A stretch of 64,000 nucleotides of DNA from Dictyostelium discoideum (taxonomy: Eukaryota). Position numbers and translations under genes: made by a program. The notes beneath the pieces are model-generated. The model was not told the DNA's origin. It ran no database searches and saw only the letters and a program-made list of their open reading frames with translations. Positions 4,796 through 63,971 of this stretch are shown piece after piece (within the stretch, counting starts at the first letter, position 1; each line of letters opens with the position of its first letter). The DNA is taken from assembly GCA_000004695.1 (NCBI GenBank), contig CM000152.2:4448001-4512000 (forward strand), in the 5' to 3' direction.

Positions 4796-7700
4796 TTAAT
4801 CGTATTCTTCGTATGATTCACTTGAGGAAGTAAAAAAATTTGAAACATCCTCTGATCCATCAGATTGTTCTTCCTCCAATTCTGGTTCAGTACCAGATGA
4901 AATATTTAAATAATCTCTCATACTTGTATTTAAATCAGGTTTCTCGATACTTGAATCAAATGATACGTTATCAATCTCTTCTTCTTCTTGTTCTGCTTCT
5001 TCTTCTTCTTGTTCACCATCACTTTTTTTTTTTTTTTTTGGTTTCTCTTTTTCAATTGATTTTCTCTTATTTTTATTTTTCTTTTTATCTTCAATTTCAC
5101 TAATTTCTTCACTTAATATTTCATTATCATCATGTTGACTTTTCTCTTTTTTACTTGATTTTCTTTTATTTTTATTTTTATTTTTCTTTTTCTTTTTAAT
5201 TTCTTCTTCACTAATTTCTTCATAGTCTTCATGTTCTTCCTGTTCTTGTTCTTTTTGATCACTTTGGATTTCTTGATCAGACTCATCACTTGATTTTTTT
5301 TTATTTTTATTTTTATTTTTATTTTTCTTTTTCTTTTTCTTTTTAATTTCTTCTTCACTAATTTCTTCATAGTATTCTTCTTCTTGTTCTTTTTGATCAC
5401 TTTGGATTTCTTGATCAGATTCATCACTTGATTTTCTTTTATTTTTATTTTTGTTTTTATTTTTCTTTTTCTTTTTCTTTTTAATTTCTTCTTCACTAAT
5501 TACTTCATAAACTACTTCTTGATCACTTTGAATTTCTTGATCTTCAGATTCATCATTTGATTTTCTTTTATTTTTATTTTTCTTTTTCTTTTTATCTTTA
5601 TTTTTCTTTTTATAATTTGATTCACTAATTTCTTCATTTATTATTTCATCATCATTTTCAATTGATTTTCTTTTCTTTTTATTTTTCTTTTTCTTTTTAA
5701 TTTCCACCTCTTCTTCACTAATTTCAATAATTTCTTCAACAATTTCTTCTTCTTCTTCTTCTTTTTCTTCGCTCTCTTCATGTTCAATTTCTTTTTCAGT
5801 TTCTTTTTCTTGATCAGATTCAGAGGATTGTTGAGAATCTTCTTGTTGACTTTCTTCATCTTCAGAGGAAGAGTATTTAACTTTTTTAGATTTAACTCTT
5901 TTTGTTGAATTTGCCCTTGTTGATGATAATTTCTTTGATTGATTTGGTTTTTTAATTTTATCAATAATTGATAAAAGTTCATCTTGTTGTTCATCTGTTA
6001 ATTCTTGTTGATGAATATCTTTACTACCACAATCATTGTTATTATTATTATTATCAGTTTCATCATCTTTTTCAATTATTAATAATGATTTCAAATATTG
6101 ATGATACTTTGAAAGTTGACCATTATATGGTTTAGAATTGATTTCATTTGACATTTTATTCGATAGGAATAATAGTTGTTGAATTGATTCTAAACTTAAA
6201 AATGATTTATCCAATTTAAAAAGTTGAAATAATTTACAATGATTCTTACCAATTGTTGTATCACCAATAATCTCTAAAGATAAATTAAATAGTAATTTAC
6301 AATATAGTTTATTTTCAATTGTTTTAAATTTAATTTCAATTTCTTGTTCATTTAAATTAATATTACCTTCATTTTGTAGTATTTGTTGTTCTTGTTGTTT
6401 TTGTTTTTGTTGAATTTGTTGTTGTTGTTTAATAAAATTTGAAATTAAAGAATTAATTAAATATTGATATAATTTAATTAAAGTTGGTGTTGAAGTAATT
6501 GAGTTTTTAAAAACATTTTGTAAAGAAGGAATAAAAGAATTTTCAATGATTGTTAAAGAGAATTCAAAATCTCTATTTGAAGGTAAAACGAAAACATTAA
6601 AGAAAGAGGATAGAATTTGTTGAGTTGGTTTACCATCATTGGTATGATTGAAAAACATTCCCATCAAGAATGAAAATATATATTGATATTGTTCCATTGA
6701 TACCTTTTTATTCTCTAAATCACAAACTTGATTACAAATAATCTTTGAAATACCTTCAACCAATCTTTGTTGAATCTTTTCTTTACCAATGATTTCATTA
6801 TCTTGAGTTTTTTCAATCTTTTTTAATAATCCATATAATTGATCTAAAATAAATTCAAATGTAATTATGAAATTATTATCATTTTCATCAATTGATTGAT
6901 TTTGATTTTGATTTTCAATTTTATTTTCATTTTCAATTGATTGATCTTGATTTTCAATATTCTTTAATTGTTGTTGCTTTTCTTTAAATTGTTTTTCAAA
7001 AATTTTATTTAATGAATAACCATACCATGATAATAAATCAAATAAACCTTCAATTGACGAAACTAAACCATCATGTTTTTCATCAATTTCAGTTGATGAT
7101 TCTTCATTTGAATTTTGATGATGATTATCTTTTTGTTGATTAAAAAATATTAAAGATTCAGTATCTAAAGATTCTAATAGGGAACAAGTATTCTTTGAAA
7201 GTGTTGAAATATTAATCATCGATTGTAATGATAAAACTTTAATTGCCATTGATTTAACTAAAGAGTTTTCACTACATAAACAATTATCCATAATTAACTC
7301 TATGAAATTGTCAATGGTTGATTTAACTTGATTATTTAATTTCAAAATTTTAGTATTCTTTAAAAAGTGATTTAAAATACTTAGAGATTTAATCCAAATT
7401 TTCTCTTCTAATAGAATTTTTAAATTATAATTCTCTGTAATTTGATTGTATTGTTCTACCTTTAAATGAATTTCATCTCTATATAAATCCAACTTTGAAT
7501 TTAGTTTATCTACAACACTCTTATTTAAATTATTACTAATACTAATACTCTTTGAACCGCTATTGTTGCTTCCAGTATTGCCGTTATTTGAATATTTAGT
7601 TTTAATTAATGTTTTAATATCTTTTCTTTTTTGAGTTAATTTATCAATTGATTCTTTGATTGCAGTCAATTGATTTTGCATTTCAATTTTAATCGATTCA

Positions 7701-8013
7701 CTTTGTTCATTATCAATTAAATTGGTCAATGTTGTTAAACTTGTTATAATGGTTTGTGAATAACCTCTATCGGTACCACTACTACCATTTTCACTAGTAC
7801 TGCTACTATTTTGAGGATTAACCAATTGATATAATAATTCCATCAATGGTTCTAAATGATTATCATCAATACTAATTGACATTAATAATTTTTGAATGAC
7901 ATCAATTAATTGTGATCTACCAGATTCATCTGAAAAATCTAAATATTGAGCAATTAATATTAATTGTGATTGAATAAATATTAATTCATTATCACTATGT
8001 TTTAATTTCTCTG

Positions 8014-9795: not shown

Positions 9796-10031
9796 GCCAA
9801 AATAATTTTTAAAAAAAAATGTTATTAAATTTTAAAAAAAATAAATATTAAAAATGATCCATTTTTTATTTGGAAATAAAATTATAGTTTTCAGTTTTTT
9901 GTAAAATTTCCATCTTATTTATTCAAATTGAATAATTATTTTCAACTGTTTCTAATAAATTAAAATCTAATTTGGTAATAAAAATTTAGTATTTTTTGAA
10001 TTGGGTAATAAAAATTTAGTTTTCATCTAAA

Positions 10032-10114
10032 GCAAGGGTAGGAAAGTCTGGTTAAATCCGTGTGACTTAAGATCTCATCCATTCGGTTCGCGAGTTCGAA
10101 TCTCGCCTCTTGCA
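10032..10114 (+). tRNA. tRNA-Leu with anticodon UAA, class II with a long variable arm, 83 nt, no encoded CCA.
   Basis: It folds by hand into a cloverleaf. The acceptor stem is GCAAGGG/CCTCTTGC with one G-U pair. The D stem is GGA/TCC with GG in the loop. The anticodon loop is C-T-TAA-G-A. The T stem is GCGAG/CTCGC with loop TTCGAAT. A B-box-like GTTCGATCC follows about 40 bp downstream. There is one U-U mismatch in the anticodon stem. Confidence 0.8.
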
Positions 10115-10419
10115 AGCTTTTTCATACCTCCTAAATATATTCGTATGTTCGATCCTATGTTCAATCTCCCTACATTAACAAAAACTATTATATTTTAAAA
10201 TTAAAACTCCTTTTTTTAATTTTTTTTTCAATACAATAAAATAAAATAATAATGATTTTATATTTTTAAACAAAAATTGGTTGTATTGTTTCTCAACTTT
10301 TTCTTGGTGTATTATAAAAAAATTTTTTTTTTTTTTTTTTTAATTTTTTTTTTTTCAATTTTTTTTTTCAATTTTTTTTTTTGGTTTTAAAAACTTTTTC
10401 AGCCAAACAAAAATCCATA

Positions 10420-13368
10420 ATGGCATTAACAATAATAAATAATTATTTAGATAATAATATTGAAATAAATAAGAATGAAATTTTATTTTGGAAAGTTTAT
10501 AGAAATATTTATTTAAAGAAACAAATTTTTAAACAATTAGAATCAGAAATTTATTTTAAAGATTATAGAATGTGTAATACAAAATCTAGAATTAAATTTA
10601 AAGATATTAAATCATTGAAATGGATGATAGATAATTGTGAATTTGAACTTTTAAAGAGAAAGATTGAAAATAAAGAATTCATTCAAATTTCTGGGGAAGG
10701 TATTAAATCATTGGTAAACATAAAAGATCATAGCATATCATTAGAAATACTTGAAATGTTAATGAGAAATCAAAGAGATAATATGGAAACGTTAAGACCT
10801 CTTGATTTTGCAATAAAACATGAAAACATGGAAATGGTAAAAGTGCTCATTAATGAACCATACTCTATGAGAATAACTTTAATGAATATTCAATCAGCAG
10901 TTCGTGCATGTTCTCCACAATTTTTGGATGAATTAATACCGTTGAGCGATATTGATATAAGAACTGGTTCAATAGCTCATGTTTATTGGATATTAAATCG
11001 TTGTGATTATAAAAAACAAGATTTTTTAAATGTTATAGTCAAATATCCTGAAACGATTGCACCACTTGGTCAATCTAGTTTATACAATATGTTACCACCA
11101 ACTTTCATATTAGATATAACAAGTATAACATCGGTTGAACAATTATTTTCATTAATACAGGTTAATTTATTTAAAAAGAAAAATAATTTGGGTATAAAAG
11201 AATTAGTTTCATTAATTACTGTTTATGATAAGTTTAAATATTCTATTAATATTTCAAAAATATTAATTTTCTTTGCATTATATATTGAAAATAATCCTAT
11301 ACAAAACATCAATGAAATTAAATCAAAAATGTTTGAAATTTTCAATAATACTAATAATAATAATAGTGAAATAGAAAAACAATTATTTAAATTATTTATT
11401 TTAGAAATAAATTCAAAAGAGATTTATGAAATTTATTTTTATAAATATTTTGAATTAATTGAAGAAATGGATAATAATAAAAGATATAAAACAATAAAAT
11501 TTTTAAACATTTTACCAAAATTTAATGAAATAATAAAATCAAATGATAAAAATGAAATAGTTAATTTCATTATAGAACTAATTAATCAAGGTAATTTAAG
11601 AACTCCGAAATATAATAATTTATTTAAGAAAATAATGGATACAATAATTAATTATTTAATGGATGATGAATATTATTATAAAATAATTATTAATGAAATT
11701 AAAAGAAAGAATTTAGAAAAGTTATTTTCAATACCATTTGAATGGAGTCCGATATTAAAAGAAATTATGATTGAACCAATCGATGGAGGATTAAATAAAT
11801 TATTTATAAATGATAAAGAAACAATTGATTGGTTATCATCTACATTTAAATTAAAATTAATAAATCATAGGAATGTTAAAACCATATATAATAATAAAAT
11901 GAAAAAAGGATTAGTTCAATTTTCAACACATCAACTTTATACATACTCAATTTTAATGTTAAACAAATACTCTTATGGAAAAAGTTTAATGAGGTCATTA
12001 ATTTATCCATCAATCTATAGTCATCCTTTAATAACAGTAAATGGAAATAAAGAATATTTAAATAAATCAGAAATTATGGAACTATTATTTAAATCAATAA
12101 TATCATATAATTTAAATGAAACCTTATTATATGTTAGTTTAATAGATTTAAAGAATGATTTTAAACAGTTTATTTCAATTTGGAATAGAAAATCAAAATC
12201 AAATGAATATAGATTCTTATTTTTAGATCAATTATTTTCAAAAACTGATATTGGAACAATTAAAAATATTAAAGTTGAAATTGTAATCGATTCAATAAAA
12301 TATTGGATAAATGAAGCAAAATCAAATTTACAAAACAATGATTTAGAATTATTATTTGAAACTATTATAAATTATTTATATAAAAAGTTAATTCAAAATC
12401 AAAATGTAAAAATTAATCAAGTTATTGAAATTAGAGAATTAATTTTAAAGTTAAATATTAAATTAGAGCATACAGAATTTCATGTATTTTATTATTTAAA
12501 TATCAGATCACCAAAACTTATTAGATGTTTATTATTAAATGAATCAGTATTATCATCACCATTATGTATTAGATTTCCGGATGGGTCAAAATATTATTGT
12601 TATAACCATATTAATAATAAACTTCCAACTAATAAAGTTCCAAAAATATTAGTTCCAACAAAAATTTCATTTGATTTATTATTTGGTAATAATGGAGAAT
12701 CATTTATAAATTTACTTGAATATCTTTATCAATTTCGGCCACATAATGTAGATACTCTATTAAAATTTTATTTAGATATAAATAGATTTGATTTATTTTT
12801 AAAAGGATTTCAAACATATAAAAAAGCAACTGATTATGGTCATATTAAATCTATAACTTTTGATTTTATTGAAGCATTATCAGTTGGAAATATTGATCAT
12901 AGTAAATTAATAATATTTCAAAAATATATTGATTTAGTTAAAATATCTAATTTTAAGGATGAAATTCAATTCGTTCAAGATATGTCAAATTTTTCAATTT
13001 CAAAAAATAGAATAGAGTTAGTTTCATTTATAATCAACTACTTTAAATTAAAAAATCTCAAGATTTATCGTCCTACTTTTAATTTATGCCACTATAATAT
13101 TTTTAAATACATATTTGAAAATCATTTCAATGATATTAAATCCATTAGTGTAGCTTTCATTGATTTTGGTGAATGCGTTTCATCATCTGATACTTTTATT
13201 CAAGATTCTATATTATTATTTGAATTATTTTTAAAATACTATCCAAGTTCATTAGATAATGTTTCAAATAGTTTATTTTTTTTTAATATCAAAAGAACTA
13301 AACTCAATTCAAAAATATTTGATTACTTATTATCAAAAAAATTAATAACCCAAGAAAATCATAATTAA
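10420..13368 (+). CDS. Lineage-specific hypothetical protein of about 982 aa, paralog A of a tandem pair.
   Basis: The track ORF 10381-13368 starts at an alternative TTG codon; the first ATG is at 10420 (MALTIINNYLDNNIEINKNEILFWKVYRN...). It is a single exon. It is highly similar to the downstream gene at 13687-16665. I saw no recognisable domain. Confidence 0.7.
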   Translation: MALTIINNYLDNNIEINKNEILFWKVYRNIYLKKQIFKQLESEIYFKDYRMCNTKSRIKFKDIKSLKWMIDNCEFELLKRKIENKEFIQISGEGIKSLVNIKDHSISLEILEMLMRNQRDNMETLRPLDFAIKHENMEMVKVLINEPYSMRITLMNIQSAVRACSPQFLDELIPLSDIDIRTGSIAHVYWILNRCDYKKQDFLNVIVKYPETIAPLGQSSLYNMLPPTFILDITSITSVEQLFSLIQVNLFKKKNNLGIKELVSLITVYDKFKYSINISKILIFFALYIENNPIQNINEIKSKMFEIFNNTNNNNSEIEKQLFKLFILEINSKEIYEIYFYKYFELIEEMDNNKRYKTIKFLNILPKFNEIIKSNDKNEIVNFIIELINQGNLRTPKYNNLFKKIMDTIINYLMDDEYYYKIIINEIKRKNLEKLFSIPFEWSPILKEIMIEPIDGGLNKLFINDKETIDWLSSTFKLKLINHRNVKTIYNNKMKKGLVQFSTHQLYTYSILMLNKYSYGKSLMRSLIYPSIYSHPLITVNGNKEYLNKSEIMELLFKSIISYNLNETLLYVSLIDLKNDFKQFISIWNRKSKSNEYRFLFLDQLFSKTDIGTIKNIKVEIVIDSIKYWINEAKSNLQNNDLELLFETIINYLYKKLIQNQNVKINQVIEIRELILKLNIKLEHTEFHVFYYLNIRSPKLIRCLLLNESVLSSPLCIRFPDGSKYYCYNHINNKLPTNKVPKILVPTKISFDLLFGNNGESFINLLEYLYQFRPHNVDTLLKFYLDINRFDLFLKGFQTYKKATDYGHIKSITFDFIEALSVGNIDHSKLIIFQKYIDLVKISNFKDEIQFVQDMSNFSISKNRIELVSFIINYFKLKNLKIYRPTFNLCHYNIFKYIFENHFNDIKSISVAFIDFGECVSSSDTFIQDSILLFELFLKYYPSSLDNVSNSLFFFNIKRTKLNSKIFDYLLSKKLITQENHN
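11626..12450 (+). repeat. Copy 1 of a ~0.83 kb near-identical segment shared by the two tandem paralogs.
   Basis: Nucleotide sequence 11626-12450 is almost base-for-base identical to 14906-15730, with only a handful of substitutions. The flanking coding sequence of the two genes is much more diverged. Confidence 0.8.
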
Positions 13369-13619
13369 AATTAAAAAAAAATAAAAAAAAAAAAAAAAAA
13401 ACATTTTAATAATAAATCGTTCTTAATCATTCTTTTTTAGTTTTTTTTTTTTTTTTTTTATTATTTTATTATTATTTTTATTCCTTTTTTTTTTTTTTTT
13501 TTTTTTTAAAAAATATATATATTTTTGGTATTTCAGTCTTTTTTTTTGACAGGTCATAATACCAAGCCAATCTTTTATCAGATTTTTTTTTCCACAAAAA
13601 TTCCCAAAAAATTTTAACG

Positions 13620-13655
<36 letters not shown>

Positions 13656-13686
13656 AATTTTTTGAAATAAATAATTAGTCAAAGCA

Positions 13687-16665
13687 ATGGATCATATTAT
13701 TAATAATAATGAAAATGAAAATTTATTTTGGAAAGTTTATAGAAATGTTTATTTAAATAAAAAAATATTTGAACAGTTAGAAATAGTGTTGGATATTAAA
13801 TTTAAAGATTATAGAATGTATAATTCTAAATCTAGAATTAAATTTAAAGATATTAATTCATTAAAATGGATGATAGATAATTGTGAATTTGAAATTTTAA
13901 AGAAAAAGATTGAAAATGAAGAATTTATTCAAATTTGTGTGTTTGGTATGAAATCATTGGCAAAAATAAAAGATGAAAACTTGTCAATCCAACTATTAAA
14001 AATGTTAATGAATAATCAAAGAGATAATTTGGAACCTTACATTATTGGTGTTGCAATAGAATATGAAAAATTAAAAATGATAAAAGTGCTAGTTAATGAA
14101 CCATACTCTATGGAAATAACTAGATTTAATATTGATCAAGCAGTTCAAACATGTTCAGCTCAATTTTTGGATGAATTATTGTTAATGTGTGACTTTGAAT
14201 TAAGAGAAACCTGCAAAAATTTTAAATTATCCCTTATTCATCAGTCAATAAATAATTCTAAAAATAATGAAAATAATGATATATTAAATATTATCATTAA
14301 ATATCCTGAAATGATTCTTCCGATTCAAAATCGTTTATATACTCAATATAGTACACCATATATACGTTATAATTTACCAAGCTTGACATCTGCTAAACAA
14401 TTATTTTCAATATTTGAAACTAATTTATTTAAAAATGAATTTAAAGTCACAAAAGATTTAATTACAGTAATTATCAGGGATCAATTTAAATATCCATTCA
14501 ATATTTCAAAATTATTAGTTTTATTTGGATTGTATATACAGAATTTATATTTCGATGAATCTCAACAATTGATAGATAAAAAACAAGAAATTAAATCAAA
14601 AATGTTTGAAATATTCGATAATAATGAAACTTCAATTAATGAAAAAGAAAAACAATTATTTAAATTATTTATTTTAGAAATTAATTCAAAAGAAATTTAT
14701 AAAATTTATTTTTATAAATATTCAGAATTAATTGATGAAATGGATAATAACTCAAGTTATAAAACATTAAGTTTTTTAAATGTTTTTCAAAAATTTGATG
14801 AGATAATAAAATTGAATGATAAAAATGAATTAACAAATTTCATTTTAAAAATTATTGATAGTGAAATTCCAATTAAAGGTCAAAAATTCAAAAACTTATT
14901 TAAAAAAATAATTGATACAATAATTAATTATTTAATGGATGATGAATATAATTATAAAATAATTATTAATGAAATTAAAAGAAAGAATTTAGAAAAGTTA
15001 TTTTCAATACCATTTGAATGGAATCCAATTTTAAGAGAAATTATGATTGAACCAATCGATGGAGGATTAAATAAATTATTTATAAATGATAAAGAAACAA
15101 TTGATTGGTTATCATCTACATTTAAATTAAAATCAAAAAATCATAAAAATGTTAAAACCATATATAATAATAAAATGAAAAAAGGATTAGTTCAATTTTC
15201 AACACATCAACTTTATACATACTCAATTTTAATGTTAAACAAATACTCTTATGGAAAAAGTTTAATGAGGTCATTAATTTATCCATCAATCTATAGTCAT
15301 CCTTTAATAACAGTAAATGGAAATAAAGAATATTTAAATAAATCAGAAATTATGGAACTATTATTTAAATCAATAATATCATATAATTTAAATGAAACCT
15401 TATTATATGTTAGTTTAATAGATTTAAAGAATGATTTTAAACAGTTTATTTCAATTTGGAATAGAAAATCAAAATTAAATGAATATAGATTCTTATTTTT
15501 AGATCAATTATTTTCAAAAACTGATATTGGAACAATTAAAAATATTAAAGTTGAAATTGTAATCGATTCAATAAAATATTGGATAAATGAAGCAAAATCA
15601 AATTTACAAAACAATGATTTAGAATTATTATTTGAAACTATTATAAATTATTTATATAAAAAGTTAATTCAAAATCAAAATGTAAAAATTAATCAAGTTA
15701 TTGAAATTAGAGAACTTGTTTTAATATTAAATATTAAATTAGAGCACACACAATTTCATGTATTTTATTATTTAAATATCAAATCACCAAAACTTATTAA
15801 ATATTTATTATTAAATGAATCATTATTATCATCACTTTTGATTAATTTAGTTTCACCATCCTTTAAATTCCCAGATGGATTTAAATATTATTGTAGTAAT
15901 TCTGCTATTAATTATAATCAAATTCATCCCACTGATTCAATTCCAATAATATTAGATCCAATAAAAATTTCATTTGATTTTATAGTAAACGAATCATTTA
16001 TGAATTTATTAGAATATATTGATAAATTTTGGTCAAATAATAATACTTTAAAAGTAAATAAGCAATTATATTATTATTTAGATATTAATAGATTTGATTT
16101 ATTTTTAAAAGAATTTGAAGAAAACAAAGAAGCAAATGTATTTAAAAAAGCTGGTAATATCGCAATGTTAAATAAAGAATTTATAAGATCTTTATCAGTT
16201 GGAAAGATCAATGATAGTAAATTAATAAACTTTAAAAAATACATCGACCTGTCCCAACTATTTAAATATCAAGAAAATGAAAAATTCACACAAGATATTA
16301 TAAATCATTCAATTGTTGCCAATGAAAAAGAATTAGTTTCATTTATAATTAATTATTTAAAAATAGAGAAAATCAATATTTATTGTGAAACTTTTAATTT
16401 ATGCTACTATGATATTTTTAAATACATATTTGAAAATCATTCCAATACTATTAAATCCATTGATGTTGGATTTGTTCAAAATAAATGTATATCAGGAACT
16501 GATACCTTTATTCAAGACTCTATATCATTATTTGAATTATTTTTAAAATATTACCCAAATTCATTTGATAATATTTCATTCATTGGAATAACCTCAAACT
16601 CAAAATTACATCACTACTTTGTATCAATAAAATTAATGCCAGAATATTCCCACACAAACAAATAA
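13687..16665 (+). CDS. Lineage-specific hypothetical protein of 992 aa, paralog B of the tandem pair.
   Basis: It is a single ORF starting MDHIINNNENENLFWKVYRNVYLNKKIFEQLE. It is collinear with paralog A over its whole length, with a near-identical central segment. Confidence 0.75.
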   Translation: MDHIINNNENENLFWKVYRNVYLNKKIFEQLEIVLDIKFKDYRMYNSKSRIKFKDINSLKWMIDNCEFEILKKKIENEEFIQICVFGMKSLAKIKDENLSIQLLKMLMNNQRDNLEPYIIGVAIEYEKLKMIKVLVNEPYSMEITRFNIDQAVQTCSAQFLDELLLMCDFELRETCKNFKLSLIHQSINNSKNNENNDILNIIIKYPEMILPIQNRLYTQYSTPYIRYNLPSLTSAKQLFSIFETNLFKNEFKVTKDLITVIIRDQFKYPFNISKLLVLFGLYIQNLYFDESQQLIDKKQEIKSKMFEIFDNNETSINEKEKQLFKLFILEINSKEIYKIYFYKYSELIDEMDNNSSYKTLSFLNVFQKFDEIIKLNDKNELTNFILKIIDSEIPIKGQKFKNLFKKIIDTIINYLMDDEYNYKIIINEIKRKNLEKLFSIPFEWNPILREIMIEPIDGGLNKLFINDKETIDWLSSTFKLKSKNHKNVKTIYNNKMKKGLVQFSTHQLYTYSILMLNKYSYGKSLMRSLIYPSIYSHPLITVNGNKEYLNKSEIMELLFKSIISYNLNETLLYVSLIDLKNDFKQFISIWNRKSKLNEYRFLFLDQLFSKTDIGTIKNIKVEIVIDSIKYWINEAKSNLQNNDLELLFETIINYLYKKLIQNQNVKINQVIEIRELVLILNIKLEHTQFHVFYYLNIKSPKLIKYLLLNESLLSSLLINLVSPSFKFPDGFKYYCSNSAINYNQIHPTDSIPIILDPIKISFDFIVNESFMNLLEYIDKFWSNNNTLKVNKQLYYYLDINRFDLFLKEFEENKEANVFKKAGNIAMLNKEFIRSLSVGKINDSKLINFKKYIDLSQLFKYQENEKFTQDIINHSIVANEKELVSFIINYLKIEKINIYCETFNLCYYDIFKYIFENHSNTIKSIDVGFVQNKCISGTDTFIQDSISLFELFLKYYPNSFDNISFIGITSNSKLHHYFVSIKLMPEYSHTNK
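14906..15730 (+). repeat. Copy 2 of the ~0.83 kb near-identical segment (putative gene-conversion tract).
   Basis: See the entry for 11626-12450. Confidence 0.8.
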
Positions 16666-39897: not shown

Positions 39898-40420
39898 TTT
39901 TGTTTTTATGTATGTTTTTAAAAAAAAAGAAAATTATGAAAATAAAAAAAAAAAAAAAAAAAAATTTGGGAGTATTTAATTATTTTTTTTTTAAAAAATA
40001 AAATAAAAAAAAAAAAAATTAAAATAAAATGATGTTGAAAGTCGGGGTGCTGAACTTATCAATTGGAGGATCGTCTGAATGTTCAATTCGAATTAATTCC
40101 GGAAAAAAAAAAAAAAAAAAAATTAAAAAATAAAATTTAAAAAAAAAAAAATAAATTGTTAATTAAAAAAAAATATTGTTAATACTAAAAAAAAAATATA
40201 TTGTCAATATTTAAAAAAAATAATTAAAAAAATTTAAAAACCCAAAATAAATAATTTTTTTTTTTTTTTTTTTTTAGAGGCAGTCAAGAAAAAAAGTAGA
40301 TTATATTTTTATTTAAAATTAATTTTAAGAAAATTAATAGTAGTTCCAAAATAAAAATAAAAAAACACTTATTTGTTATTCCTATTATTTTTTTATTAAT
40401 TTATTTATTTTCGACTAACC

Positions 40421-40456
<36 letters not shown>

Positions 40457-41145
40457 ATTATTTTTAGTTGTTTATGATTTTTTTTTTTTTTTATAATGAT
40501 AATGAAATGTTATTAATTTTATTGATTTCACCTACCCCCATTAAAATAATTTTTTTAATAAAAATAATATATATTATTATTTTTATAATATTAAAAATAG
40601 CGACATATGAACTTTAATTTTGTTTCAGTGAGGAGCGAGGGTGAGTGTTAGTGTGAGTATTTTAAATACATAATTAATAATATCTAAAAGATTTTAAAAA
40701 ATAATTGAATATTCCTATTAAAAAGAGGGACACAATGATGAAACACAACCTCCCTTCATATGTGATTTTAAAAACATATTAAAATTAAAAAAAAAAAAAA
40801 AAAATTAAGAGGAAAAAAAAAACAAATAGTTTTTTTAAGTGGGTTGTGTTTCAAGTGGGGTGATTTAGATAATTTTTTCAAAAAAAATAACCAATAATTT
40901 GCCCCCACCCACTTTCACTATCAAGTTTTTTTATTTTGAAAAAAAAAATTTTGTGTTTAAAAATAAATTAACAAAAAAAAAAAAATAATAAAAATACATT
41001 TTTTGTGGTGAGATAAATAGAGATAATGATGAATATAAACGACAATTCGAGAAATGAAACCTTTTTTTAGAATGTTTTTGAGATCATATTGAGAGATAAT
41101 TAATCAAAGTGGTGAAATACCCACAAAATTATTTTAAAAATAAAA

Positions 41146-41179
<34 letters not shown>

Positions 41180-41675
41180 AATTAAATTAAATTTTTGATT
41201 AATATTATTTTTTATTTTTTTTTTTTATTTTTTTATTTTATTTTATTTAATTTAATTTAATTTAAATTTTAAATATTTATTTTGGAATTCCAAAAAAAAA
41301 TAAATTCAAACTGTATTATATTGTATTATTAACAAGAACTAGAAAATTTCCTAATCTACTTTTTTTTATTTTAAAATAAATAAAAAAAATATATAAACAA
41401 ATTTTAAAAAAGGTAATAAAAAAATCAATTTTAAATTAAACGATAGATAAAATGAGATCAAATTTTATTTTAATTAAATTTAATTTTTAATTAATTAAAT
41501 AATAATAATAATAATAATTGTAAAATAATAATAAAAATAATGATAATAATAAAAATAATAATAATATTTTTAATATTCTTATTAGTAATTATTATAAATG
41601 GAATTAATTTGAAATTGTTTTAAACACTACATTCTTATTTTAGTTTTTTAAAAATTATCAAAATAATTTATATTT

Positions 41676-41800
<125 letters not shown>

Positions 41801-42118
41801 TTAATTTTAAATTAGATTTGAAATTAAATGTCAGGTTTTTTTAGAAATTTTTTATTTTTTTTCTTTATTATTTTTTTTTTTTTTTTGAATTGTGTGTTAG
41901 ATTTTAATAAATAAATTATTTAATAAATAATAAACCCATTCTCTTAAATAATGGGGTTAAAGAAAATTAACTATAAAAGTTTTATATGGCTAAAACCACA
42001 TAAAATAAAATAAATTTTAAAAAATTATAAATTAAAAAATTAAATATATATTAATATATCGAGCTGAATCTTTTCGATGTTCATTTTTTAAAATAATAAC
42101 AATATATAAAAAAATAAA

Positions 42119-42151
<33 letters not shown>

Positions 42152-42200
42152 ATAATAATAGTAATAATAATAATAATTTTAAACTACCAAGTCCCCACTT

Positions 42201-42250
<50 letters not shown>

Positions 42251-42914
42251 CAAAAAATTGAAAATTGTGGGGTGTTTAAGTTTTCAATAACAATTGAATA
42301 GAAATTATATATAATATTCTATATTAAATAATTGTTGGATTTAATTGTGATACTATTTTTACTATCATAACAACCCCATTAATACATATAAGCACACAAA
42401 CACTACACACTACACACACAACATAAACAACAAAAATAACAACAATAACAACAAAACACTAACCACACGTACAACAACACTAACCACACATAATCATTAA
42501 GAAATAATAACAGCAAAATTTAAAAAAAATAAAAATAAAAAAATAAAAAAAAAAGAAAAAAAAAAAAGAAAAAAAGAAAAAAAAAAAAAAAAAAGAAAAT
42601 AATATTGTTCCTTCCACTACTACTACTATTATTATTTTCATACCACTTTCAAACAAAAGGAACAAATAATAATAATAATTGTATCAATAACCAATAGAAT
42701 TAATTTTTTTTTTTTTTTTTTTAAAAACTTTAACTTTTTTTGGAATATTATTAAAACCGACATTAAAAAAAAAAAAAAAAAAAAAAAAGAGGTAAAAATA
42801 ATAATTATACAGATAATAATATTATCATTCATAATAATTATAAAAAAAATAATTATAAATAATAAAATCAAAAATAATTATAATAATAATAATTTTTTTT
42901 TAAAAAAAAAAAAT

Positions 42915-42945
<31 letters not shown>

Positions 42946-43677
42946 TGTGATATGTTTTAGGTTGGTAAAATTATTTTATTTATTTATTTATTTATTTATT
43001 TTATTTTATTTTTTTTAAAAAAAAAAAAAATTAGCTGTTTTTAAAATAATTTGATAAAATAAATAATCACATTCAATTGTGATATATTAATTGTATTCTA
43101 TTTAATTAAAATAAATAACAATTGTTGTTTTTATCCATTTTTTTATTTTTTTTTTTTTTTATTTTTTTGTGAATTACAAAAAAAAAAAAAAAAAAAAAAA
43201 AAAAGGTTACTTTAATTTTTTTTTTTTTTTTTTTTTTTTAAATAATTGTTTTTGTCCAAAATATTTTATTAAAATTTATGCTATCTTATTATTTATATCT
43301 TGCATAATTCAATTAAAATATTTTTAAGAAAAGGAACAACCCTCTTTTAAAAATATTAAATTATAAAAAAATAAATAATAATTAAAAAAAAAATAAAAAT
43401 AAAATTTTTTAAAAAAAAAAAAAAAAACTCTTAAAATTATATAATTGGAAATAATAATAATATAATAATAGTTGTAAAATAGTATGTATTTATTTTTATT
43501 TTTTTATTTATTATTTCCTTTATTTTTAACATTTTATTTAAATAATAATAATAATAATAATTTAAAATAATAATAAAAAAAATTTTATAACAGTTTCAAA
43601 CTTTTAATTTTATAATTAAAATATTTGAAACTATGTCATAACTGACTCTTCTTTAACTGTGTGAGTTTTTTGTGTTT

Positions 43678-43712
43678 GTGGAGTGTGTGTGTGTGTGTGT
43701 GTGTGTGTGTAT
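43678..43712. repeat. (GT)n dinucleotide repeat of about 17 units, preceded by a G/T-rich stretch, in the srfA upstream region.
   Basis: The sequence is gtgtttgtggagtgtgtgtgtgtgtgtgtgtgtgtgt. Confidence 0.85.
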
Positions 43713-44823
43713 TTATTAATTTTATATGTGTAAAAAATTTATATATTAATTTTAAATATTGTGATATGTTCACCAATTCAAAAAAAAAAAAAATATTAAA
43801 ATAATAATAAAAAAATTTAAATAGTATGTTATTCTTTATAATAATATCAAATTAAAAACATCATACAACACCTACATCATCCAAGTTGTTGTTTTTAAAA
43901 AAGACAGTTAACAATAAAAAACACATTGTTAAATAGATGCATACTCGTTAAAAAAAAAAAAATAAAAAAAAAATAAAATAATAAATAAAAAAAATAAAAT
44001 ACACACAGTTAAAAAAAAAAATAATAATATTAATAACTAGAGAACGAGTGAAATAATAATTTTTTAAAAAAACATATACACCCCCCCACTTTATATAAGT
44101 TTTTTTATTTATTTAATTTTTTTATTAAATTATTATTTTTTTTTTTTTGTGTGTGTCTTTTTTTGTGTGTTGTGGTTATTTTTTTTTAATAGATTTGTGT
44201 TTGAGTGGGTTGGTTTGTGGTGATAGTTGATTTCAAAATATAGCCCTTACAAATAAAAGTTTTATTATGGTGATAACTAAAAAAAATAAAAAAAACAATT
44301 AAAATAAAAAAATAATTTAAAAAAGAATATAAATAATCTTTTTTTTTTTTTTTTATTGTTTTTTTTTTTTTTTTTTTTTTCATAAATAGTTTTTTTTTAA
44401 AAAAAAAAAATTAAATAATAATAATAAAAAACACAATCAAAAAAAGCAACAACACCACCACCACCAACAACAACAACAACAACAATAACATCCAAACCAC
44501 ATACAAAAAAGGGAATACCTAAAATAATCCCAATTTAGAATTTATTAATCAAACCGTCAAATAAAATTAATAATAAAATAAATAAATAATTTATTTATAA
44601 ATATTAATTTTTTAATAATTGTATTATTTATAATAAAACCAAAATTCCTTTTAATGTATGTTTTTATTTGATTTATTTTATTATTTTTATTTTTAACAAC
44701 AACAACACTATTTTAAAAAATTGTTTTGTTTTTTTTTTGTTTTTTTTATTTTATTTTATTTTATTTTATTTTATTTTTTTTACTACAACTCCTAAAAAAA
44801 GAAATTAAATCCAAACAAATCAA

Positions 44824-44856
<33 letters not shown>

Positions 44857-45594
44857 TAGTAACTATACTACAAAAAAATAATTAACAAATTACATTAATT
44901 ATCATCATCATCACCATCATCACCATCCATCATCCATCAAACCTTTTTTCATTTATATATGGTGTAAATTTTATTTAGATTTTACTTTTTTTTTTTTTTT
45001 TTTATTATTGTTTAAAAAAAAAAAAATTTTATTTTTTTTATTTTTTTTTGTTTTTTTTTTTTTTTTTTTTTTACAAAAAAGGTAATTTTTTATAAAACTC
45101 TAATCTTAAAATATTTCACCAACTTTTTTTCACTATTAACAATTTACACCCCACACATACAATACACCATATATTTTTGAGAAGGTTTTACTTTTTTTTA
45201 TTTTTAAATTACATTTAATTTTTTTTTTTATTTTATTTTTTTTTTTTAAATATTATTTTTTTTTTTTTTTATTTATTTTTTTTTTTAATGTTAAATTTGG
45301 AATTATTTTTTAAATACTTTTTCCCTATTTTATCTTTATGTGTTTTTTTGATCATCAACCTTCTTTTTATTAAATAAAATCACAACCCACAATCACCATC
45401 ACCCTACATTTTTAAATCAATTGATAATCTATATAAACGTATATACTAACTTTACTTTAAAATAATATTTTATTTTTTTTATTATATATATCTTAATTTT
45501 CTATAGCAAATAATTAATTTTTAAAAAAAAAAAAAAAGAAAAAAAAAAAATTTTATTTCAAACCACCCAAATAGTATATTACATCATCACGTTT

Positions 45595-45725
45595 TCATCA
45601 TCAACTTATATTATTATTTTTTTTTTTGTGCCCCACTCCCAACCACATAAATTTCCAATTTAAAAATTAAAAAAACACCCACAAACCCACATAACCCAAA
45701 TTTGTATATTATAAAAAAAAAAAAA
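45595..45725. promoter_or_regulatory. Cluster of C/A-rich elements 300-420 bp upstream of the MADS-box gene start codon.
   Basis: The sequence ...ccccactcccaaccacat...cacccacaaacccacataacccaaa...aaacccacactc... matches CA/GT-rich promoter elements. Elements of this kind, read on the opposite strand as G-boxes, are known targets of GBF/CAE-binding factors in Dictyostelium post-aggregative genes. They stand out in a region that is otherwise more than 85% A+T. Confidence 0.4.
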
Positions 45726-45968
45726 CCCACACTCTTTGCTATAAATCAAATATATTTATATTAATTTTATTTATTTGTATAAAAAAAAAAAATTTTAATT
45801 TTTAAAAAAAAAATTTATTTATTATAAAAAAAAAATAATAATAATAATTGTTTATTTTAAAAAAAAAAAAAAAAACATAAATCAAAAAAACAATAAAAAA
45901 AAAAAAAAAAAATCAACAGTTAAAAAAAAAATAATAATAATAATAATTAAAGTAAAAAACGGATTTCT

Positions 45969-46018
<50 letters not shown>

Positions 46019-59222: not shown

Positions 59223-60283
59223 TTAATTTTTTATTTTTCTCTGATTTGAAAAAAATAAAATACGAGTGTATAAAACAAATAAAATACGAGCGTAACAAAC
59301 AAATAAAATTTTTAAAAAAATAAAAAAATAAAAAAAATAAAAAAAGTAAAAAAAAATAAAAAAAAAAATAAAAAAAAATAAATTAATGAAAAAATTAATT
59401 TTTCTTGGAATTTCCTAAAATAAAATTAATAAAACTAATTTTTTAAACTCATTAAAACATTAAAAAATGAATTATTTACAAACTAAAAAAAAAAAAAAAA
59501 AAATTTTTTACTTATATACAATACTTTTTAATTTTTTTATTATTAAATAAAAAAAAAAAAAGGAATTTCAAATAATTTTTTTTTATATATTTTCAAACAA
59601 ACATATTTTGATATATTTATTTGTAGATTAAAATAATTTTTGAACTATATAGATATTCAGTTTATTTACTCTTTATTATGATTAACCTTGGCTGAAAAAA
59701 AAAAAAAAAAAAAAAAAAAAAATTAAAAAGAGCTAAAGTCAATTTTATATAATAATTTTAAACCATCTGTTTTGATTGAAATGAACCCCTTTTTTCAATA
59801 TTCTACCTATTAAATTAAGAAAATAAATAGTTTAAAAAAAAAAAAATATTAATAAAATTTAAAATGGAAATAAAAAGGTTTTTTTCTTATTTTTTCCCCA
59901 AAAAAAAAAAAAAAAAAAAACAACTGATATAAGTTGTCGGGTGTGGTATTTTAACTAGCTCTCATAAAAATCCATGCAAACACAAGATAAAAAAAAATTG
60001 AAATGAAATGGACTACTACAACAATGTTGCCAGTAGGTTTTTTTTTTTTTTTTCTATTTTTATTATTATTTATATTATTATTATTTTTTTTATTTTTTTT
60101 ATTTTTTTATTTTTTTTTTTTAAAAATCTCAAAACTGATAAAAGTAGTATTTTAATTTTTAACCAAATATATCATCTATGATAAAAACAATTCTAATAAA
60201 ATCAATTTTTCTTCAAACATCAAAGAAAACCATGTGGCTTTATTTTTAAAATATAAAAAAAAATAAATATTAATTTAATTAAT

Positions 60284-60316
<33 letters not shown>

Positions 60317-60730
60317 AAATTTAAAATAGTATTTAAATGAGGTAAAAATTTAGAACATTCATTTAAATAAATTCAAAAGTACTTGTATATTAAAAATAAT
60401 AATAAAAATTAAGAAGATTTAAATATATACATTATATCTATATTTAACAACTCCAAAAAAAAAAAAAAAAAAAGTAATATTAATTAAAAACCTAAATTGG
60501 AAAAAACTAATTGAACACATTTAAAATACAAAATTATTGTTTATAAAAACACATAAATATTTATAATTATCCAAAAAATTTTTTGATTTTCAAAGTTGTG
60601 TTTATTTTTTAAAATTATTTTTAATATAATATATTGGGTAAATAAAAAAGAAGAACATAAAAGTTCTTTATTAATAATTTATCTATTTTTTTAAAAGTAA
60701 ATCTTTTTAATTATTTTATTTTTGTTTAGG

Positions 60731-60773
<43 letters not shown>

Positions 60774-61055
60774 TAAATAAAAAAAAAGTAAAAAAATTAA
60801 TTAAACAAAATATAATAATATTGATTGTTTTATTTACAAAATTTAACTCCAACTGCTCATTGGAAACTTTAATTAATAAAAAAAAAAAAAAAAATAGAAT
60901 TATTTTCAAACCAAAGCAATAAAAACACACCCAATTTTTTGAATTTATTATTTCACACAAAACTAACCCACCCAAGCAAAACAACACACTCCCACACTTT
61001 CAAAAATAGTTTAAACAAACCTAATACATTTTTTTATTATAAAAATAATTTAAAT

Positions 61056-61094
<39 letters not shown>

Positions 61095-61431
61095 ATAAAG
61101 AAAATAAAAAAAAAAAAAAAAAATTCTATTATTAACAAAAAAAGAAAACAAAATAATTACTTAACAAAAAGTTTAATGGCATATAAAGATTCATATATTA
61201 ACAATTTTCAATTAATATAAATTTAAAAAGTAGAAATCAAATCTATAAAAAAAAAAAATTTTATTTTATTTAGAAACAAAAGAATTCTTTATCATAAAAA
61301 TGTATGTATATATATTTAATCAACCCTTTTTTTTTTTTTTTTTATTTTTCAAATTAATTAGTTTCTTTAATAACCCTTTATTTTAAATTTTTTTAAATAT
61401 TAAAAAAAATATGTAATAACAAATAAATAGG

Positions 61432-62579
61432 AATAGTTTTTTAATTGAAAAATATTGTGATTTTGAATTGCCAAATTATATTAATTTGGCAATTCCAGTA
61501 TTCTTTATTGCAATGGTAGTTGAAGTTACTATTCAATTTTGGAAAGTAAAATATAGAAATCAAGAATCTGATCATGATTTTAATGATACAATATGTTCAA
61601 TTTTATTGGGTTCCCTACAAGAAGTTTTTCATTTCTTTATGAAACCAATGTTTTTTATACCATATTTATATATGTATGTATTTTTTTTATTAATAATTAA
61701 ATTGAATTATTAAATTATCCATAAAATTTTTATTATTATATTTTAGATGGAATAATTTTAGAATTTTGGATGCATCAACTACAAATGTGTTAAGTTTCAT
61801 TTTAGGATTTTTAGGAATTGATTTTTCAATTTATTGGTAATTATTAATAAAATATATATATATACTAAAATAATAATAATAATAATTATAATAAAAATTC
61901 TAATATTATTTTATTATAATATTATTTTATATTTTAATTTTTTAATTTTTTAAAAGTTTTCATCGTTTAGGACATGAATTTAATTTTTTTTGGGCATTAC
62001 ATGTACCACATCATTCATCAGATTATTATAATTTTTCATCAGCAACTAGACAAAGTATGTTTCAATATATTTATGTTTGGATACATTATTTACCAATGGC
62101 ATTTTTCGTTCATCCAATTCATTATTCATTTCATCATCATTGGAATAGAATCGTCCAATTTTGGTTACATACAAATGTATTGACTGGTTATTGTGAATGG
62201 ATTGAATTTATTTTTGTAACACCAAGAATTCATAGAGTTCATCATGCAAAGAATCCACAATATATTGATAAAAATTATGGTGGAATGTTAACGATTTGGG
62301 ATAAACTATTCGGTACATTTCAAGTCGAACATCCTGATGTTAAAATGGAATTTGGTATAACAGAAGATGATGATATCAACACTCATTCAACTATTTGGTT
62401 AAATATTCATCATTTCGTTTATATGTATAATCTATCAAAAAGATTAAAAGGTTTTTCAAAATTAAAAGTTATTTATAAACCACCAAATTGGTTACCAGAA
62501 GATGATTATCCAATTATTATTAATAATAATAATAATAATATTAAAAATGATGATAATAATGATAATAATGATAATAATG

Positions 62580-63888: not shown

Positions 63889-63971
63889 TGCAAGAGGCGA
63901 GATTCGAACTCGCGAACCGAATGGATGAGATCTTAAGTCACACGGATTTAACCAGACTTTCCTACCCTTGC
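63889..63971 (-). tRNA. tRNA-Leu with anticodon UAA, second copy, identical to the gene at 10032-10114 but on the opposite strand.
   Basis: The reverse complement of 63889-63971 equals 10032-10114 at 83 of 83 positions by hand comparison. A perfect external B-box GGTTCGAATCC lies about 30 bp downstream of the gene, at plus-strand 63851-63861. External B-boxes are a known feature of Dictyostelium tRNA genes. Confidence 0.8.

Follow-up and report, generated by a model that had tools for sequence, protein, structure and literature searches.

The window considered here is a stretch of 64,000 nucleotides of Dictyostelium discoideum AX4 chromosomal DNA (assembly GCA_000004695.1, contig CM000152.2, positions 4,448,001 to 4,512,000), with a guanine-plus-cytosine (GC) content of about 20%. 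It carries two genes, DDB_G0281421 and DDB_G0281423 (hereafter A and B), which are tandem paralogs arranged head to tail, both of them uninterrupted open reading frames (ORFs) with a spacer of 318 bp between them, and both annotated in strain AX4 as hypothetical proteins. Our subject is a segment of some 0.9 kb inside each gene, which is near-identical between the two otherwise diverged copies and most probably owes this identity to repeated interlocus gene conversion. The genes, the segment and its boundaries are listed below in window coordinates, with the two AX4 copies denoted AX4_A and AX4_B.

10420–13368, plus strand: gene A, DDB_G0281421, single exon, 982 amino acids (aa), exact protein match EAL66692.1/XP_640664.1
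13687–16665, plus strand: gene B, DDB_G0281423, single exon, 992 aa, tandem paralog of A, exact protein match EAL66693.1/XP_640665.1
11620–12559, plus strand: wider low-divergence zone taken as the conversion tract, A copy, codons ~401–714, with zero fixed A/B differences
14896–15835, plus strand: the same zone, B copy (pairwise register A 11620 = B 14896 and A 12559 = B 15835)
11872–12438, plus strand: core of the latest AX4-lineage event, A copy, 567 bp, with a sole mismatch at 12200
15148–15714, plus strand: the same core, B copy, from the same pairwise alignment
11599–11619, plus strand: left boundary, with a 3-bp insertion or deletion (indel) at 11599 and a dense cluster of A/B differences that recurs across genomes
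12547–12560, plus strand: right boundary, a junction rich in indels, where AX4_B carries an 18-bp insertion (15836–15853) relative to A

Codon-aware pairwise alignment of A and B gave a nucleotide identity of 78% overall, and the encoded proteins are 66% identical. Sliding-window identity ranged from 0.51 to 0.93 outside the tract and from 0.94 to 1.00 inside it, and third-codon positions followed the same pattern. A maximum-likelihood two-breakpoint search placed the AX4 block at 11638–12438, with 10 differences in 801 sites (1.2%) as against 509 in 2073 (24.6%) outside it and a log-likelihood ratio of 148, the divergence between paralogs in the flanks being 24–29%. Interrupted only by the mismatch at 12200, the core is identical for 328 bp and again for 238 bp. 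The 328-bp stretch is the longest identical run of the pair; when the difference positions were shuffled 10,000 times, the corresponding value averaged 34 bp and reached 83 bp at most. Depending on the criterion, the tract measures about 0.80–0.94 kb. The first-pass annotation of this DNA, made from the letters alone, had described a discrete tract amid diverged flanks, and the alignment, the sliding windows, the third-codon positions and the two-breakpoint search all bear it out. Its coordinates were right on the A side and are shifted by 4 bp on the B side (A 11626–12450 corresponds to B 14902–15726), while the amino acid differences it had placed near the block edges (SPILKEI versus NPILREI, and LKLINHRN versus LKSKNHKN) are real differences that lie not at an edge but 120–250 bp inside the left part of the tract.

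AX4 was compared with four fetched loci, namely those of the wild D. discoideum isolates FIR (L001) and FIW (L002), of D. cf. discoideum FIZ (L003) and of D. citrinum (CIT, L004). Every one of the five genomes holds exactly two intact genes, one with A-type and one with B-type flanks, in conserved synteny (10/10 ORFs intact), and the near-identical tract is present in every genome of the resulting ten-sequence codon alignment. Sites 11600–11619 are paralog-specific in all discoideum-clade genomes, and from 11628 on almost none are. Breakpoints in FIR, FIW and FIZ fell at 11620–11638 on the left and 12522–12546 on the right, the right-hand one being 12546 in FIR, FIW and CIT and 12522 in FIZ.

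Neighbour-joining trees were built from the flanks, the tract and the core separately. Both flanks recovered the split between A and B, the 5' flank with a bootstrap of 1.0 and the 3' one with 0.95, and thus group by paralog, indicating that the duplication is older than the split between D. discoideum and D. citrinum. In the tract the same split received a bootstrap of 0, the sequences grouping instead as FIZ_A with FIZ_B (1.0), CIT_A with CIT_B (1.0) and the six sequences of D. discoideum sensu stricto (s.s.) together (0.995). The core alone joined AX4_A to AX4_B with a bootstrap of 1.0.

The distribution of individual sites over the 5' flank, the tract and the 3' flank agreed with these trees. 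Of the sites with a fixed difference between A and B in the four discoideum-clade genomes, 143 lie in the 5' flank, none in the tract and 92 in the 3' flank. States private to one genome and present in both of its copies numbered 0, 3 and 0 in AX4, 0, 2 and 0 in FIR, and 0, 13 and 2 in FIZ; those private to D. discoideum s.s. and carried by both copies numbered 2, 11 and 1, and polymorphisms shared between the paralogs within D. discoideum s.s. numbered 3, 12 and 1. The AX4-private states at 12123, 12133 and 12137 occur in both AX4 copies. A derived 15-bp deletion after 12336 is found only in AX4_A, AX4_B and FIR_A, a distribution indicating that the indel was copied between paralogs. Outside the tract, candidate sites for conversion within D. 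discoideum s.s. amounted to merely 0–2 per sequence.

Synonymous divergence (dS) between the paralogs was 0.035–0.08 in the tract as against 0.34–0.52 in the flanks of the four discoideum-clade genomes; in D. citrinum it was 0.18 in the tract, and the flank range with all five genomes included was 0.34–0.60. The test for a discrete tract gave a dS of 0.044 within it and 0.38–0.48 in the flanks. Between orthologs of AX4 and D. citrinum, however, the dS of the tract was 0.31, so that its synonymous sites are free to change and are not constrained at the nucleotide level. Non-synonymous divergence (dN) between species was lowest in the tract, at 0.11 versus 0.19–0.25 in the flanks, and the between-species dN/dS of 0.36–0.47 was not markedly below that of the flanks. 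No signature of GC-biased conversion was seen, GC at third-codon positions being 0.086–0.105 in the tract and 0.085–0.169 in the flanks, and total GC 0.16–0.19 and 0.18–0.22, respectively.

Taken together, the trees, the private states shared by both copies, the transferred indel and the homogenisation of synonymous sites exclude constraint as the sole cause and show the tract to be evolving in concert through interlocus gene conversion. The reading that conversion between the tandem duplicates, occurring repeatedly, lies behind the identity of the tract is given a probability of about 0.9. Ectopic gene conversion and concerted evolution of the central segment had already been proposed in the first-pass annotation, and the trees, the dS values and the site counts support both strongly.

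Conversion hit the same tract independently no fewer than four times, in three lineages or more. The events took place in D. citrinum, in D. cf. discoideum, in the ancestor of D. discoideum s.s. and in the AX4 lineage, with a further small event in FIR. In FIZ the event was very recent and ran across the entire tract, the divergence by sub-block being 0.8–3.6%. The ancestor of D. discoideum s.s. was homogenised, and A and B then drifted 2–4% apart in FIR and FIW, FIR adding its small private event around 12101–12201. In D. citrinum the tract has broken up. Across its middle (11758–12135) the distances among CIT_A, CIT_B and the D. discoideum sequences are roughly equal (0.14–0.16), which dates the last homogenisation of this part to about when the species separated, with divergence in D. 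citrinum thereafter, while the left and right parts (11620–11757, paralog difference 0.072, and 12136–12546, 0.019) were converted again later. A block corresponding to AX4_A 12690–12930 was converted in D. citrinum only; here its paralogs differ by 0.103, as against 0.18–0.23 between orthologs and 25% between the AX4 pair.

The 567-bp core is the sole part of the tract that was converted recently in the AX4 lineage (the NC4 lineage, AX4/AX2). In its right half the markers 12362 and 12367 and the 15-bp deletion are A-type states carried by B, which indicates copying from A to B. Site 12200 remained unconverted, AX4_B keeping the state found in FIW_B and FIZ, which suggests that the tract is patchy or the product of several events.

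Clusters of private changes were noted beside the core. To its right, the interval 12439–12552 / 15715–15853 has six AX4_B-private substitutions in 114 bp, as against some 1.7 expected at the density of the gene as a whole, together with a 12-bp insertion likewise private to AX4_B; in AX4_A a private cluster lies at 11747–11754. These could be repair-associated mutations, the mark of an unsampled donor allele or chance. Distant members of the gene family were considered as donors and rejected, those of D. dimigraforme (L006) and of FIY (L007) being about 30% identical and situated at other loci.

A mechanism can be envisaged as follows. The tandem duplication came first, before the split between D. 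discoideum and D. citrinum, after which homologous-recombination repair would repeatedly have templated one copy from the other in non-reciprocal interlocus conversion, probably between sister chromatids or within one chromatid, the organism being haploid. The internal segment of about 0.9 kb, which evolves slowest among the long parts of the protein, would stay similar enough to recombine, and every conversion would reset its identity, giving a self-perpetuating island of identity. Such recombination depends on homology, and the diverged flanks, with indels exactly at both tract ends, probably halt heteroduplex extension. The latest event, in the NC4 lineage, homogenised 567 bp, mainly from A to B in the right half, with the 15-bp deletion carried along. 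We infer the molecular pathway, the cause of the shared boundaries and the neutrality of the process, and a self-sustaining island of identity is the most economical account of where the tract lies.

The choice of this segment could also be attributed to adaptive concerted evolution, in which selection favours an identical central domain, for example one with which both proteins bind the same partner or each other. Selection would in addition purge conversions that spread into the diverged termini, hence the ends shared across lineages. The tract ends do agree within about 30 bp in AX4, FIR, FIW, FIZ and, for the outer ends, D. citrinum, dN is lowest within them, and both genes are intact in all five genomes. 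In D. citrinum, however, the middle of the tract (380 bp) has diverged to 16% with neither gene lost, and a different block on the 3' side has been converted; the dN/dS of the tract is not markedly below that of the flanks, and the coincidence of the boundaries with indels is a sufficient mechanical explanation for them. An opportunistic process that depends on identity accounts better than a selected unit for the breakup of the tract and the extra 3' block in D. citrinum, and selection for identity thus appears unlikely, as does its extension to the purging of longer conversions. It is similarly doubtful that the tract is a module selected in lock-step, or that it holds or abuts a site at which recombination starts and which is conserved throughout the D. 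discoideum/D. citrinum complex. Were selection nevertheless at work, the two proteins would have one central domain in common, such as a binding or heterodimer interface, and specialise at their N- and C-termini; a lock-step module or an initiating site would mean that the same 0.9 kb is re-homogenised repeatedly with the same ends. In calling the segment a domain under concerted evolution, the first-pass annotation was therefore correct as to the concerted evolution and too strong as to a selected domain, given that in D. citrinum the tract middle escaped and another block was converted.

Some observations weigh against repeated, opportunistic conversion as set out above. The polarity markers are few and partly inconsistent. 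In the left half of the core, 11942 is B-type in AX4_A and, 16 bp away, 11958 is A-type in AX4_B, so that the latest event either was itself a mosaic or came on top of older polymorphism. Between orthologs, the dS of the tract (0.31) is somewhat below that of the flanks (0.43–0.54), which the model does not predict. Estimates of dS are rough in a genome of 20% GC. Finally, ends shared by at least four independent events could reflect selection and not a mechanical barrier.

A simpler history, in which a single recent conversion specific to the sequenced strain accounts for everything, was the reading of the first-pass annotation, which spoke of one young identical tract. This description holds for the 567-bp core, which is specific to the AX4 lineage, unites AX4_A with AX4_B at a bootstrap of 1.0 and has three private substitutions in both copies. 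It does not hold for the tract as a whole, which was homogenised in all five genomes by several events, since it is near-identical also within FIR, FIW, FIZ and partly CIT, and since 13 private shared states belong to FIZ and 11 to D. discoideum s.s. It is thus very unlikely that one event would suffice.

The AX4 reference was built from short Sanger reads, and the genome is very AT-rich and repeat-rich, yet a repeat collapsed or mis-joined in the reference is hardly credible as the source of the tract, as an independent long-read assembly from the same lab lineage (L005) has both genes 100% identical to the window and the same tract occurs in four further independent assemblies. The L005 record (GCA_054883475.1, CM142509.1), a Nanopore and Illumina assembly, belongs to the genome set of PMC12745789 and, judging from its accession series, is probably the lab strain AX2-214. 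Over 22.9 kb it shows 10 mismatches and 8 gaps relative to the window, among them shorter homopolymers in the spacer between A and B, and agrees with the window at every base of both genes. On the evidence of these assemblies, the AX4 tract is not an assembly collapse. Equally implausible is a history without recombination, in which strong purifying selection keeps a conserved domain alike in both copies: it would suit a tract that is the slowest-evolving long segment at non-synonymous sites, but the synonymous sites match between paralogs while diverging between species (dS 0.04 versus 0.31), the tree topology changes from by-paralog to by-genome, private mutations and an indel occur in both copies, and pure constraint has a different appearance, seen at the N-terminus of the same proteins, where the paralog distance is about that of the orthologs.

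This N-terminal region is a module in its own right, located in the two genes as follows.

10477–10722, plus strand: N-terminal module of A, ~82 aa, LFWKVYRN...SLKWMIDN...LLKxKI
13717–13968, plus strand: N-terminal module of B, counterpart of the A module

The consensus of the module reads ExLFWKVFxNxYL...NRIKFKxIxSLxWM..N.Q..LLKxKL. It is common to at least 30 otherwise very different Dictyostelium proteins of 76–1434 aa (P0008–P0043), many of which share nothing else. Its AlphaFold2 model had a predicted local distance difference test score (pLDDT) of 84.8, and searches with the module gave no Pfam family, no PDB match and no significant structural match. Over these N-terminal ~80 codons the near-equality of paralog and ortholog distances points to constraint and not to conversion. 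Long poly-Asn runs occur in the N-termini of FIW_A (L002 6665–9733, 1022 aa) and CIT_B (L004 13791–16880, 1029 aa) and are absent or short in the AX4 genes (982 and 992 aa), so that the length of a trinucleotide repeat is polymorphic just upstream of the conserved module.

Relatives of A and B were found only in Dictyostelium by protein search. An exhaustive profile search of 1.84 billion representatives returned 37 proteins at E<=0.001; ten of these were looked up, and all of them, as well as P0005 (D. cf. discoideum) and P0008 (D. purpureum) already identified by the protein search, proved to be Dictyostelium proteins with no assigned function. They come from D. discoideum, D. cf. discoideum, D. 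dimigraforme and D. purpureum, and the relatives in D. dimigraforme, in D. purpureum and at a second D. cf. discoideum locus are about 30% identical. The paralogs had been called lineage-specific, which is true at the level of the genus, the duplication itself predating the split between D. discoideum and D. citrinum. At the locus of the second D. cf. discoideum isolate (L007), two adjacent called genes (10001–11281 and 11377–13590) match the N- and C-terminal halves of the family, respectively; they probably represent a single member that a frameshift, an intron or a break in the annotation has divided.

Profile searches of PDB sequences and Pfam-A gave nothing significant, in keeping with the earlier remark that the family has no recognisable domain. 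The only Pfam matches in A were sub-threshold ankyrin matches at residues 108–145 (13.4–13.8 bits, cut-offs 22.3–27.3), and the Pfam ankyrin models Ank, Ank_2, Ank_3 and Ank_4 had no match in B; the distant relatives P0017 and P0034 scored 17–18 bits against the Pfam ankyrin models, with the same cut-offs of 22.3–27.3. A full-length AlphaFold2 model from a seven-sequence alignment was all-helical and unreliable (pLDDT 47.9, predicted template modelling score 0.31). The family is restricted to Dictyostelium and predicted to be all-helical, with no recognised domain. A literature search on the identifiers DDB_G0281421 and DDB_G0281423 returned no paper.

The gene pair has a transfer RNA (tRNA) gene beside it.

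10032–10114, plus strand: tRNA-Leu(UAA), 305 bp upstream of A

The adjoining tRNA gene, the two ORFs and their head-to-tail order had all been correctly described in the first-pass annotation. The D. discoideum isolates and D. citrinum keep the tRNA-Leu in its place upstream of A; the sole tRNA-Leu at the D. cf. discoideum locus (L003) lies about 6.3 kb further upstream. A second tRNA-Leu(UAA), at 63889–63971 on the minus strand, has an 83-nucleotide sequence identical to the copy at 10032–10114, from which it is about 54 kb away and in opposite orientation.

BLAST searches with the tract and with gene A revealed no third copy in the rest of the window. Outside their coding sequences, whether upstream, between the genes or downstream, A and B match only in low-complexity stretches, and the detectable duplication thus stops at the borders of the coding sequences. 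A direct-repeat scan of the whole window gave nothing beyond low-complexity A/T and trinucleotide noise. Upstream of the pair, a minus-strand ORF (4796–7882) contains coding tandem repeats at 5042–5667, with periods of 99–138 bp, 2–3.4 copies and 79–87% matches; this large gene measures 1536–1583 aa in related loci and has a faint HEAT match. The regions 40001–46000 and 60001–62000 have 13.5–15% GC and no ORF of at least 250 aa, and are markedly more AT-rich than the remaining window.

The pair offers a clean multi-genome case of interlocus conversion in a haploid amoebozoan, with dated layers that are ancestral, specific to a species, specific to a strain and specific to the NC4 lab lineage. 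For practical purposes, including the central third makes estimates of orthology and divergence for DDB_G0281421 and DDB_G0281423 wrong, and variants called from short reads are ambiguous in 11620–12559 and 14896–15835. The genes could serve as a natural reporter of mitotic or meiotic ectopic recombination in Dictyostelium, and the analysis also marks out a protein family, uncharacterised and specific to the genus, whose members have an N-terminal module in common. It leaves the current understanding of gene conversion unchanged, A and B being a new and well-resolved but ordinary example of a well-known process.

Mosaics of interlocus conversion in tandem duplicates are known from Drosophila (PMC2588116), Caenorhabditis (PMC3966223), HMA4 of Arabidopsis halleri (bioRxiv 10.1101/2025.10.29.685298) and ATP1A1 of frogs (bioRxiv 10.1101/2020.08.04.234435). 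As in these cases, A and B are close tandem duplicates in which a discrete internal tract has been homogenised at synonymous sites too, the gene tree changes from by-paralog to by-species in the tract, polymorphisms are shared between paralogs and diverged regions lie alongside. In contrast to them, the present pair belongs to a haploid social amoeba with about 20% GC and to a gene family without known function, has no GC enrichment in the tract, and has seen the same tract reused in at least four lineages of a species complex. Repeated, independent homogenisation of one paralog pair has likewise been described for fungal ribosomal protein genes (PMC6993855) and prokaryotic paralogs (PMC6053082). 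In those systems, however, it usually takes in whole coding regions of highly expressed, dosage-sensitive genes, whereas in A and B it reaches only about one third of a gene that evolves fast, and in one species it is decaying. Within the genus, gene conversion has been discussed for the tgr allorecognition loci of Dictyostelium (PMC12745789; bioRxiv 10.1101/2025.10.22.684067), where local recombination also acts among tandem paralogs, and the same new genome set enabled the present test. The proteins are unrelated, and while recombination at the tgr loci generates diversity in polymorphic surface receptors, recombination between A and B erases the diversity between the paralogs.

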